NCBI GenBank assembly: GCA_036510675.1
Contig: DATCDN010000138.1
Coordinates: forward strand, 109,199-173,198
Origin: Stellaceae bacterium
Lineage (GTDB): Bacteria; Pseudomonadota; Alphaproteobacteria; ATCC43930; CGMCC-115725
Direction of reading: 5' to 3'
DNA: 64,000 bases
The position numbers and the translations under genes were made by a program. Positions 27,070-42,646 of this stretch are shown here, one piece after another (the stretch's first letter is position 1; each line of letters starts with the position of its first letter). The notes under the pieces were generated by a model. It ran no database searches and was not told the DNA's origin. It saw only the letters and a program-made list of their open reading frames with translations.

Positions 27070-27180
27070 CTAGAGTGCGATCCGGCCGGAGAAATCGCAC
27101 TCTAATCATTGAATTAGAGGCGGATTCACGCCTGATGGAATCGCGAATGCGATTCCATCAAAGGCGATCCGACTCTAGAG
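27070..27180. repeat. composite palindromic intergenic element (three nested or adjacent perfect hairpins)
   Basis: There is an 11-bp stem (27071-27081 / 27094-27104), a 7-bp stem (27100-27106 / 27113-27119) and a 12-bp stem with a GAAT loop (27133-27144 / 27149-27160). CTAGAG motifs lie at both ends. Confidence 0.85.
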
Positions 27181-27226
27181 TTGCTCGGCGCGGCACTCGC
27201 CGCATGAGCGAATAGGGGGAAACGCA

Positions 27227-27610
27227 ATGTCGGACATTACATGGCTGCTGATCGCGGTCATCGTCGGCCTGGTGCAAATCATGCTCGCGGCGCAGATGGC
27301 ACAAAAATATCGTAGCCTCGATTGGAACGTCGGTCCGCGCGACACCTCGATTCCGGTTGAAGGCACCGCCGGCCGCTTGGAGCGTGCCTATCGCAATTTC
27401 CTCGAGACGTTTCCCCTGTTCGCGGCGGCGCTGATCGCGGTGGTGATCCAGCACAAGTCGGGTGGCACGTCCCATTGGGGCGCGCTGCTCTACGTCATCG
27501 CGCGCATCGTCTATGTGCCGCTGTATGCCCTGGGCGTGAAGTATGTCCGCACAGCGGTCTGGGCGGTCTCGATCGTCGGCATCGTGATGCTGATCGTCGC
27601 GGCGTTCTAA
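27227..27610 (+). CDS. MAPEG family membrane protein (glutathione-transferase-like)
   Basis: 127 aa with 3-4 TM helices. RAYRNFLETFPLFAAAL and YVIARIVYVPLY are typical of bacterial MAPEG. Confidence 0.75.
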   Translation: MSDITWLLIAVIVGLVQIMLAAQMAQKYRSLDWNVGPRDTSIPVEGTAGRLERAYRNFLETFPLFAAALIAVVIQHKSGGTSHWGALLYVIARIVYVPLYALGVKYVRTAVWAVSIVGIVMLIVAAF

Positions 27611-27616
27611 AGGGGA

Positions 27617-27749
27617 CAGTTATCAGTTATCAGTTATCAGTTATCAGTTGTCAGTCTGATAACTGACGACTGACGACTGACGACTGACGACTGACGACTG
27701 ACGACTGATAACTGACGACTGACGACTGATAACTGACGACTGACGACTA
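27617..27749. repeat. inverted heptamer-array hairpin (6 x CAGTNNT directly abutting 13 x ANNACTG)
   Basis: The left arm is 27617-27658 (CAGTTAT x4, CAGTTGT, CAGTCTG). The right arm is 27659-27749 (ATAACTG x3, ACGACTG x9, ACGACTA). It fills almost the whole 143-bp gap between the two convergent stop codons. Confidence 0.95.
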
Positions 27750-27753
27750 CCCG

Positions 27754-28716
27754 TTAAACGTCAATCACCAGAATATCCGACAGCGCCCGCGACACGCAGG
27801 GCGTAAAGATCTTGCCGCTCTCATGTTCCTGCTTGGTCAGGATCAGGTCGCGATGGTCGGGCACGCCCGATACGATATTGGTGAGACAGGTCGCGCACAC
27901 GCCTTGTTCGCACGAGACCGGAATATCGATCCCGACGGCGCGTAGCGCCTCGACCACCGTCTTGTCCTTGGGGATGGTAATGAGCTGGCCGGTCTTCTTG
28001 ATTTCGACCAGAAACTCGGTCGCGTCTCCGGGTTTCGCCGCGACGCCGGTGAACCGCTCAAGGTGGAGATGCGCATCGTCCCACCCCAGCTTCTTCGCAA
28101 CATCGACGGCGACGTCCATCATGATGCCGGGGCCGCAAATATAGACATGCTTGCCCGGATCGGGCGCGCCGAGGAAGGCCGCGAGGTCGGGGCGCTGTTC
28201 CTCGGGACCGTCATCGAAGTGGAATTGTACCTGGGGCGCGAATTCCGCCGCCGTCACGCGTTCGTAAAACGCCGTGCGGGCGCGGCTCCGTGTGCAGTAA
28301 TGGAAGGTGAACGGCGCCGCGACGGCATGGAGGCGCTCGGCCATAGCGAGGATCGGCGTGACGCCGATGCCGCCGGCCAGCAGTACCGTCTCCTTGGCGT
28401 CGGTCGCCAGCGGAAAGAGATTGTGCGGCCCGCGAATGACGACGGTATCGCCCTCCGCCACGGTGTCGCAGAAGGCAGCGGAGCCGCCGCGCCCGGCTAG
28501 CTCGCGCTGGACGCCCAGCACATAGCGATGGCGCTCCGACGGCGCGTTGCTCAGCGAGAATTGCCTGATCTTGTCGCCGATCTTGACGTCGAGATGGGCG
28601 CCCGCCTCGAACGGCGGCAATTCCTTGCCGTCGGGATCGACCAGTTCATAGGAATAGATGCCGGTCGCTTCTTCGCGCTTCGCGGCGATCCGCGTCGAAA
28701 ACCAATCGGAACTCAT
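27754..28716 (-). CDS. PDR/VanB-family oxidoreductase (flavin reductase plus plant-type 2Fe-2S ferredoxin domain)
   Basis: 320 aa. It has the flavin-binding RQFSLSN, NAD-binding LLAGGIGVTP and the C-terminal cluster CEQGVCATC. Confidence 0.85.
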   Translation of the reverse strand: MSSDWFSTRIAAKREEATGIYSYELVDPDGKELPPFEAGAHLDVKIGDKIRQFSLSNAPSERHRYVLGVQRELAGRGGSAAFCDTVAEGDTVVIRGPHNLFPLATDAKETVLLAGGIGVTPILAMAERLHAVAAPFTFHYCTRSRARTAFYERVTAAEFAPQVQFHFDDGPEEQRPDLAAFLGAPDPGKHVYICGPGIMMDVAVDVAKKLGWDDAHLHLERFTGVAAKPGDATEFLVEIKKTGQLITIPKDKTVVEALRAVGIDIPVSCEQGVCATCLTNIVSGVPDHRDLILTKQEHESGKIFTPCVSRALSDILVIDV

Positions 28717-42224: not shown

Positions 42225-42233
42225 GGTAATTGT

Positions 42234-42261
42234 CAGTCTTCAGTTGTCAGTTTTCAGTCAG
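42234..42261. repeat. left heptamer arm of the four-helix-bundle cassette (CAGTCTT CAGTTGT CAGTTTT CAGTCAG)
   Basis: Read directly. The last unit overlaps the AGGAG SD (42260-42264) of the downstream ORF. Confidence 0.9.
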
Positions 42262-42266
42262 GAGAA

Positions 42267-42626
42267 ATGCAGAATTTCCGCGACCTCAAGGTTTGGAGCA
42301 AGGCTCATGCGGTTGTGATTGCCGTGTACGCCGCGACCGAGCCGTTTCCAGCGGCGGAGCGTTTTGGCCTCACAAGCCAGATGCGTCGGGCCGCTTCCTC
42401 GATTCCGGCGAATATCGCCGAGGGATGCGGCCGTTCGAGCAATGCCGATTTGGCGCGCTTTCTCCATATCGCATTGGGATCGGCAAGCGAGCTCGACTAC
42501 TTTTTACTGCTCGCCCGCGATCTGAAATTCTTAAAGCCTCCAATTCACGACGATCTCCGCGCCAATGTTCAAGAGGTCAAACGAATGCTCGGCGGCCTGA
42601 TCGGTCGCGTCAGAACTGATGACTGA
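42267..42626 (+). CDS. four-helix-bundle protein (23S rRNA intervening-sequence protein / DGR Avd fold family)
   Basis: 119 aa. FRDLKVWSKAH, ERFGLTSQMRRAASSIPANIAEGCGR and FLHIALGSASELDYFLLLA match the TIGR02436/PF05635 pattern as I remember it. Confidence 0.85.
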   Translation: MQNFRDLKVWSKAHAVVIAVYAATEPFPAAERFGLTSQMRRAASSIPANIAEGCGRSSNADLARFLHIALGSASELDYFLLLARDLKFLKPPIHDDLRANVQEVKRMLGGLIGRVRTDD

Positions 42627-42646
42627 AAACTGATGACTGAAAACTT
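42612..42646. repeat. right heptamer arm of the cassette (AGAACTG ATGACTG AAAACTG ATGACTG AAAACTT)
   Basis: Read directly. It contains the ORF stop (42624-42626) and the yejF ATG (42633-42635). It includes a perfect 14-nt tandem duplication (42618-42631 = 42632-42645). Confidence 0.9.

Follow-up and report, generated by a model that had tools for sequence, protein, structure and literature searches.

A CAGT-core heptamer palindrome between convergent MAPEG and reductase genes, and the dispersed repeat family to which it probably belongs

What is a run of 7-nt repeats doing between two convergent stop codons, and does the long hairpin that it can form end transcription? These questions are raised by a 143-bp gap (27611-27753) in a Stellaceae genome, in which the gene for a MAPEG-family membrane protein and the gene for a reductase converge, and in which heptamers at 27617-27749 occupy 133 of the 143 bp. 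All positions given without a further label are those of the window, by which we mean the whole 64,000-nucleotide stretch of DNA that was analysed. We think it fairly probable that the gap holds one member of a dispersed family of CAGT-core heptamer repeats that has evolved by slippage, and that it is not a canonical intrinsic terminator.

The array and its family

The original prediction held that six CAGTNNT units abut thirteen ANNACTG units without a spacer, that the tip of the palindrome is CAGT-CTGATA-ACTG, and that the right arm holds nine exact copies of ACGACTG, six of them consecutive. The sequence and a table of the units bear out each part of this description (Table 1). TRF finds both arms at a period of 7, with 5.6 and 12.4 copies, 96% and 90% matches, and scores of 71 and 146 for the left and right arms, respectively. 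The units of the right arm follow each other in the order ATAACTG, ACGACTG x6, ATAACTG, ACGACTG x2, ATAACTG, ACGACTG and ACGACTA; only this thirteenth unit is degenerate, lacking its final G, as is usual for the terminal units of the CAGT-core family. The three ATAACTG units and the four CAGTTAT units correspond to TAACTGA on either strand, and the other units keep the core. The array ends 6 nt from the stop codon on the MAPEG side and 4 nt from the stop codon on the reductase side, where the stop reads TTA on the + strand (27754-27756). Pfam agrees with the names that the two flanking genes had been given; the reductase combines DmmA-like_N/NAD-binding domains with a C-terminal 2Fe-2S (Fer2) domain. 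The C-terminus of the MAPEG protein has the same length as in congeners, indicating that the array has not truncated this gene.

Table 1 Features of the MAPEG-reductase gap and of the genes on either side, in window positions
Feature	Position	Strand	Basis
MAPEG-family membrane protein gene (127 aa)	27227..27610	+	Pfam PF01124, E 1.9e-22; stop TAA 27608-27610
Purine-rich 6-nt spacer AGGGGA between stop codon and first unit	27611..27616		Sequence
Left arm, six CAGTNNT units: CAGTTAT x4, CAGTTGT, CAGTCTG	27617..27658		Sequence, TRF, unit table
Palindrome tip CAGT-CTGATA-ACTG; kept in the sister lineage as CAGTCTGACAACTG	27652..27665		Sequence comparison
Right arm, 13 ANNACTG units (3 ATAACTG, 9 ACGACTG, terminal ACGACTA)	27659..27749		Sequence, TRF, unit table
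Six identical ACGACTG units in a row, 42 bp, signature of slippage expansion	27666..27707		Unit table
21-nt block ATAACTG ACGACTG ACGACTG/A x2, three-unit duplication	27708..27749		Unit table
4-nt spacer CCCG ahead of the reductase stop; end ACGAC.ACCCGTTAA common to the sister lineage	27750..27753		Sequence comparison
Reductase gene (320 aa), convergent with the MAPEG gene	27754..28716	-	Pfam PF00111, PF22290, PF00175

The focal array is one of about 38 in the genome (3.62 Mb in 138 contigs, 65% G+C, 95% complete), 26 of which are clear pairs of a CAGT arm and an ACTG arm. There are 108 pattern hits genome-wide, compared with 0 for the control, in which the heptamer is read backwards. The CAGT arm lies 5′ in 24 cases, and the reverse arrangement occurs in none. 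Arrays usually consist of about 4+4 units, and the number of units per arm ranges from about 2 to 22. Six arrays are expanded: C22 (11 units in the left arm and 5 in the right), C57 (~12 and 4), C90 (22 and 11), C129 (8 and 3), the cckA copy (10 and 15) and the focal array (6 and 13). The expansions are runs of a single unit, namely CAGTTCT x7, CAGTTTT x15, CAGTTGT x6 and, at the focal site, ACGACTG x6. We reject the idea that the right arm is longer throughout the family, since C22, C57, C90 and C129 have more units in the left arm than in the right.

We determined the gene context of the arrays using gene calls from a crude GC3-based ORF picker. Divergent gaps hold 0 of 37 arrays (P ~9e-4 by gap count, 5e-5 by intergenic bases), convergent gaps hold 15 of 37 as against 17% expected (P 5e-4), and co-directional gaps hold 22 of 37. 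At 40 junctions, the distance in the sense direction from the stop codon to the first full CAGT unit has a median of 7 nt and a range of 1-19 nt; at about 12 of the 40, the first unit is degenerate and overlaps with the stop codon. TAG is over-represented among the stop codons at these junctions (19 of 40, compared with 29% genome-wide; P 0.015). Many sibling junctions have a GGAA, GGAG or GGGG spacer after the stop codon, similar to the focal AGGGGA, and the spacer between cobS and cobT consists almost entirely of array. The design that these arrays appear to follow is a CAGTNNT run facing an ANNACTG run, in one polarity, beginning a few nucleotides after a stop codon. Two heptamer palindromes lie in tandem in a single gap at C129:2513-2666, which suggests either repeated seeding or duplication of a whole element.

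Seven of eight genomes of the same genus have arrays of this type, with only 1-10 pattern hits each as against 108 here, and in an even sample of the class, arrays were found in only 6 of 400 other genomes. The genome is thus an outlier in its group. Two small or unrelated genomes of the class sample, G036 and G404, have long arrays that match the backwards-heptamer control and belong to other heptamer families, whose core is different. A scan for the palindromic form, with one genome per species, listed at least 120 stretches from at least nine phyla (Acidobacteriota, Chloroflexota, Planctomycetota, Verrucomicrobiota, Bacteroidota, Desulfobacterota, Gemmatimonadota, Gamma- and Alphaproteobacteria), with Stellaceae MAGs among the matches listed. 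We analysed stop anchoring in the first 80 of these at least 120 loci (L041-L120), which contain 84 elements. For 81% of the elements, at least one end lies no more than 25 nt from the stop codon of an ORF of at least 100 codons, compared with 11% for random positions in these loci, and the median distance from element to stop in the 80 loci is 5 nt. The outermost units in these loci keep AGT and lose the C, giving defined ends of the form AGTNNT...ANNACT. Across the 120 listed loci (L041-L160), the polarity count is 147 to 0, with about 120 of the 147 having been preselected by the search pattern.

History of the site

At the focal site, the array is absent from all eight genomes of the same genus (G001-G008), the flanks of which are 75-85% identical at the DNA level. 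The MAPEG and reductase genes are convergent in six of the eight (G001 and G003-G007); the gene neighbours are different in G002 and G008. A distance of about 1 bp separates the two stop codons in G006 and G001, and one of 27 bp in G004; unrelated sequence fills the gap in G005 (118 bp), G003 (407 bp) and G007 (534 bp). Neither protein has changed in the length of its C-terminus, so the array lies precisely between stop codons that almost abut. The MAPEG-reductase gap is an insertion hotspot in the genus. The gap inserts at 117322-117847 of G007 (L003) and 103636-104033 of G003 (L004) are unannotated, and the insert of G007 starts with a CT-rich palindrome, CTCCTTCTCCTCCCTTGAGGGGAGGAGAAGG.

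Close strains were found by looking up the exact protein in three other metagenome assemblies, in which the flanks are 99.62%, 99.96% and 100% identical. The 143-bp gap is identical in two of these assemblies; the third contig, which is identical throughout its 1.1 kb, stops within the array and agrees with it up to that point. A 138-contig draft, together with a public contig that breaks off within the array, might suggest that the array is an artefact of short-read metagenome assembly. However, the identical gap is present in two spanning assemblies, one of them from a strain that differs at 24 of 6384 flanking bases, and variation among the units makes the array resolvable, its longest perfect run being 42 bp. 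The array is not an assembly artefact; the independent assemblies have already refuted this explanation, the probability of which we put at next to nothing.

A sister lineage was reached through a second MAPEG variant of the same 90% cluster, in four assemblies with flanks 95.6-95.9% identical to those of the focal site. The sister gap is 60 bp long and reads TAA AAGATTT CAGTCGT CAGTCGT CAGTTGT CAGTTAT CAGTCTG ACAACTG ACGACG ACCCG TTA. Its array has about 5+2 units as against 6+13, with only one to two units in the right arm, and differs strongly in composition. The two arrays have in common the tip (CAGTCTGA[C/T]AACTG) and the right end (ACGAC.ACCCGTTAA), and we conclude from this that they are orthologous. 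The CAGTCGT units of the sister are the exact complement of the ACGACTG units of the focal array. This comparison shows an array already in place in the short interval between the convergent stops in the common ancestor of the focal and sister lineages. The sister hairpin is compact and nearly perfect, with 18 bp and -30 kcal/mol compared with about -62 kcal/mol for the focal hairpin.

Sibling arrays elsewhere in the genome, inside operons or at their ends, differ between near-identical strains: by the presence or absence of one AAAACTG unit (7 nt) at C90:7870-8123 (adh-GH1), by an ATGACTG-AAAACTG pair (14 nt) at C22:20098-20222 (atpF-adh), and by 35 nt together with unit changes at C57:2108-2242 (cobS-cobT). 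These length changes fall mostly inside runs of repeated units. Note that the comparisons use short-read assemblies, in which the unit counts of C90, the longest sibling array, may be unreliable; because its 105-bp perfect run is near the read length, the single-unit difference at C90 is the least certain of the three. The original prediction had described a dynamic repeat in which runs of identical units arise by slippage, and the sister array and the sibling differences of 7, 14 and 35 nt support this. Invariance of unit number across divergent relatives would have spoken for a conserved structural sequence instead; the counts are identical only among strains that are 99.6-100% identical, and differ both in the sister lineage and among the siblings.

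Parsimony alone would place a gain of the array after this lineage had separated from the congeners, in preference to a separate loss in every congener. The two arms would then have gained and lost units independently by replication slippage, and the runs of six ACGACTG and four CAGTTAT units probably arose by slippage in the focal lineage. Against this slippage picture stands the invariance of the focal array among the close strains examined.

Upstream of the MAPEG gene, at 27075-27185, is a 98-bp palindrome-rich, MITE-like insertion flanked by a direct repeat of 7 bp, CTAGAGT; in the sister lineage this site is empty and has a single CTAGAGT. There are at least six copies of this element in the genome, 92-99% identical (C138:11228, C47:9238, C34:9822, C82:32458, C55:137 and C55:7112), and related copies occur in the congeners G007, G005 and G002.

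Arm pairing, folding and known repeats

The predicted folding energies for the RNA of the gap are -61.6 (z -10.1) and -62.3 kcal/mol (z -8.6) for the + and - strands, respectively, and 0 of 200 shuffles fold as well. A CAGTTAT unit set against an ACGACTG unit forms five Watson-Crick pairs, one G-U pair and one mismatch, i.e. 71% Watson-Crick pairing, or 86% including the wobble. The arms had been described as about three quarters complementary. The pairing itself is confirmed, but it is not special to this element and represents the family baseline, since two arms drawn from different elements match one another just as well as the two arms of a single element: complementarity at the variable positions is 0.67 for real arm pairs and 0.71 for shuffled pairs (P 0.92). 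We therefore reject an origin by inverted duplication, and likewise compensatory upkeep of the arms. Among 16 co-directional cases, fold energy does not differ between sense and antisense strands (P 0.78), and G-U pairs show no preference for the sense strand (30 vs 41); hence, we also reject selection on a sense-strand RNA hairpin. We conclude that the hairpin arises as a side effect of the invariant 4-nt core together with one T/A position, since these can pair whatever the register, and not from arm-to-arm matching. Three results argue against structural selection on the hairpin: the arms are unmatched, there is no sense bias, and the stem energy is halved between the sister lineages. A search of the gap against Rfam returned only sub-threshold look-alikes of miRNA hairpins, which are generic hairpin matches.

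REP and BIME elements of enterobacteria and pseudomonads are dispersed extragenic palindromes that follow genes and occur in convergent or co-directional gaps, not in divergent ones. They are often found near stop codons and are thought to act on mRNA 3′ ends. REPs, which RAYT transposases mobilise, are single palindromes of 20-40 nt with a GTAG head. The heptamer arrays are similar in being dispersed palindromes after genes, near stops and absent from divergent gaps; the focal element differs in consisting of 133 bp of tandem heptamers rather than a single imperfect palindrome of 20-40 nt with a GTAG head. We found no match to PF01797 (RAYT, Y1 transposase) in the genome, which is 95% complete, and no reverse transcriptase. 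An origin from a REP/RAYT system or a retroelement is therefore rejected. No direct repeat flanks the focal array, with relatives too diverged (75-81%) to fix the boundaries of an insertion. The family copies have their unit class in common, and not their unit order or their loops.

Heptanucleotides such as CCCCAGT and CAACAGT were reportedly described by Mazel and colleagues in 1990 as the STRR repeats of heterocystous cyanobacteria. Like the units studied here, to which they are close, these are tandem 7-nt units that contain CAGT, are intergenic, highly repeated and unexplained; they differ from the focal units at the variable positions. We know of no description of STRR repeats with a palindromic arrangement or with anchoring at stop codons. 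The STRR repeats are mentioned, with their sequences not given, in PMC4692102.

Among the long simple repeats of many bacterial genomes, heptamers are the most strongly over-represented, and they stand without an explanation (PMC4679880, PMC4692102). TAACTGA repeats are known from marine Beggiatoaceae, Cyanobacteria and some Bacteroidetes (MacGregor 2015; PMC4679880). The heptamer is identical, ATAACTG and CAGTTAT being the TAACTGA unit read in a different phase or from the opposite strand. These repeats too are intergenic and at gene boundaries, vary by indels in 7-nt steps between close strains, are lacking in relatives with the same gene neighbourhood, and are of unknown function (PMC4679880). 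However, they are direct repeats that lie mostly just upstream of start codons, with one inverted set in the Beggiatoa genome (PMC4679880), whereas the family described here has two opposed arms that make up a palindrome and is anchored after stop codons. The focal array also has freer variable positions, with ACGACTG dominant. It consists of head-to-tail 7-nt units with an ACTG/CAGT core, is intergenic and varies in 7-nt steps, as is characteristic of the TAACTGA class. We conclude that it joins the known CAGT/TAACTGA heptamer class. Its host appears to be alphaproteobacterial, a group that is listed neither for the TAACTGA repeats (PMC4679880) nor in PMC4692102.

Inverted heptamers have been described in two further settings. 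In Xanthomonas, arrays of GGGAATC commonly have about four units, are in some cases inverted pairs that can form stem-loops, and vary widely in length at the same intergenic sites among related species (Rehm et al. 2015; PMC4692102). Unlike the CAGT-core units, GGGAATC is G-rich, has been studied as a G-quadruplex former and has no CAGT core (PMC4692102). In Coxiella burnetii, ORF-bearing intervening sequences of the 23S rRNA have a heptamer-repeat stem around a PF05635-type (S23p) gene; the repeat number varies by strain, and the stem is cut by RNase III (PMC4990558). The likeness extends to the window itself, in which arms of the focal type enclose a PF05635 gene (42225-42646). The heptamer in Coxiella is GACAGAT and not CAGTNNT, and the focal element is free of genes and lies outside rRNA (PMC4990558 for the Coxiella elements).

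Termination, cargo, binding or seeding

The array had been noted to sit where a bidirectional terminator would be expected, yet to have no U tract. The latter point is right: a consensus scan of 27100-28000 found no terminator-like site, promoter or U tract, and the stem is followed by ACCCGUUAAAC on the + strand and by UCCCCUUUAGAA on the - strand. The focal array does not have the form of an intrinsic terminator, which is a short G+C-rich stem-loop followed directly by a U tract. The hairpin might nonetheless be a selected bidirectional terminator, or a 3′-end stabiliser of the MAPEG and reductase transcripts, that acts without a U tract. Consistent with this, the array fills a convergent gap that holds no other terminator, its stems are very stable on both strands, the sister lineage keeps a hairpin, though a smaller one, and arrays are enriched in convergent gaps and absent from divergent ones. 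Canonical terminators are, moreover, not above shuffle level in the surrounding 20 kb (13 terminator-like sites vs 11.9 in shuffles, i.e. no enrichment), although this wider scan carries little information. However, the U tract is missing on both sides, and the 22 of 37 arrays that lie between co-directional genes are often inside apparent operons (cobS-cobT, adh-GH1) and mostly only ~7-45 nt before the next start codon. Two hairpin-free congeners manage with stops about 1 bp apart, the energy of the stem varies two-fold between the sister lineages, and there is neither compensatory matching of the arms nor a sense-strand bias. The bidirectional-terminator role is thus not supported, and we consider selection for termination or stabilisation unlikely. 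Nothing shows that the focal array is a dedicated terminator; such a role is unlikely given the lack of a U tract and the location of most arrays between co-directional genes.

Could the array instead have once carried a gene? One element of the family does so, 15 kb from the focal array: between its arms, at 42225-42646, it carries a PF05635 (23S_rRNA_IVP) gene (42267-42620), the only PF05635 gene in the genome. The bracketing arms, CAGTCTT CAGTTGT CAGTTTT ... ATGACTG AAAACTG ATGACTG AAAACTT, have the unit class and polarity of the focal array, and arms and ends of the same class would be expected if the focal array were an emptied IVS-type cassette whose PF05635 gene had been deleted from between the arms. 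We consider this very unlikely. The focal arms abut at a 6-nt tip with no PF05635 gene between them, no spacer and no gene remnant; the sister lineage has none of these either; and about 37 empty elements, with mutually unrelated loops, stand against one with cargo. Among the congeners, arrays occur in seven of eight genomes and a PF05635 gene in one of eight, a comparison that is weak because several of the congener genomes are incomplete. On these counts, we tentatively reject the idea that the arrays depend on the PF05635 gene. A further explanation, in our view quite unlikely, is that the array is a binding platform, with a protein or the ribosome reading the CAGT/ACUG core every 7 nt on DNA or RNA and the hairpin being incidental. 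One candidate for the factor is PF05635, a small four-helix-bundle protein whose gene is bracketed by such arms at 42225-42646. Binding of this kind fits the conservation across phyla of only the 4-nt core and one T/A position, the polarity fixed relative to gene ends, and the lack of matching between the arms, and an RNA-binding regulator has been proposed for TAACTGA repeats (MacGregor 2015; PMC4679880). However, the candidate binder is only putative, with PF05635 occurring once in the genome and in one of eight congeners although seven of the eight have arrays, and a range of about 2 to 22 units per arm would be odd for a tuned binding site.

We return to the explanation that we favour, a dispersed heptamer repeat that evolves by slippage. 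Each of the convergent transcripts that extends into the gap would fold there into a long, imperfect stem (about -60 kcal/mol), and this stem might act as a barrier to 3′ exonucleases, as a substrate for RNase III, or as both. The genome has an RNase III gene, and given that the heptamer stem of Coxiella is cut by RNase III (PMC4990558), cleavage by RNase III or a block to 3′ exonucleases would, by analogy, be the most likely effect on the transcripts. We propose that the array is tolerated on account of its position, which is outside both coding and promoter sequence.

The anchoring at stop codons, the defined ends and the polarity fixed across phyla nevertheless amount to more order than a neutral slippage repeat would have, and point to a seeding mechanism or a function. 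It is possible, though not likely, that CAGT-core heptamer hairpins are a distinct and undescribed class of element, actively seeded at stop codons by a sequence-specific mechanism, in which case the focal array would be an expanded working module and not junk. The AGT...ACT ends, the single polarity and the conservation in at least nine phyla favour this explanation. Such a class may be functionally connected with processing by RNase III and with the PF05635 'IVS protein'; for example, the stem might place a stop codon next to the following start codon, preserving translational coupling.

The locus represents a natural time series, from a site that is empty in eight congeners, through the compact 18-bp hairpin of the sister lineage, to the 6+13 units that are frozen among strains 99.6-100% identical. 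Three rules of the family, i.e. stop anchoring, one polarity and unmatched arms, constrain any model of its origin or function, and speak against labelling hairpins of this kind as terminators in annotations. A seeding mechanism or a binding factor, should there be one, would account for a common, ignored feature of many environmental bacterial genomes and of rRNA intervening sequences.
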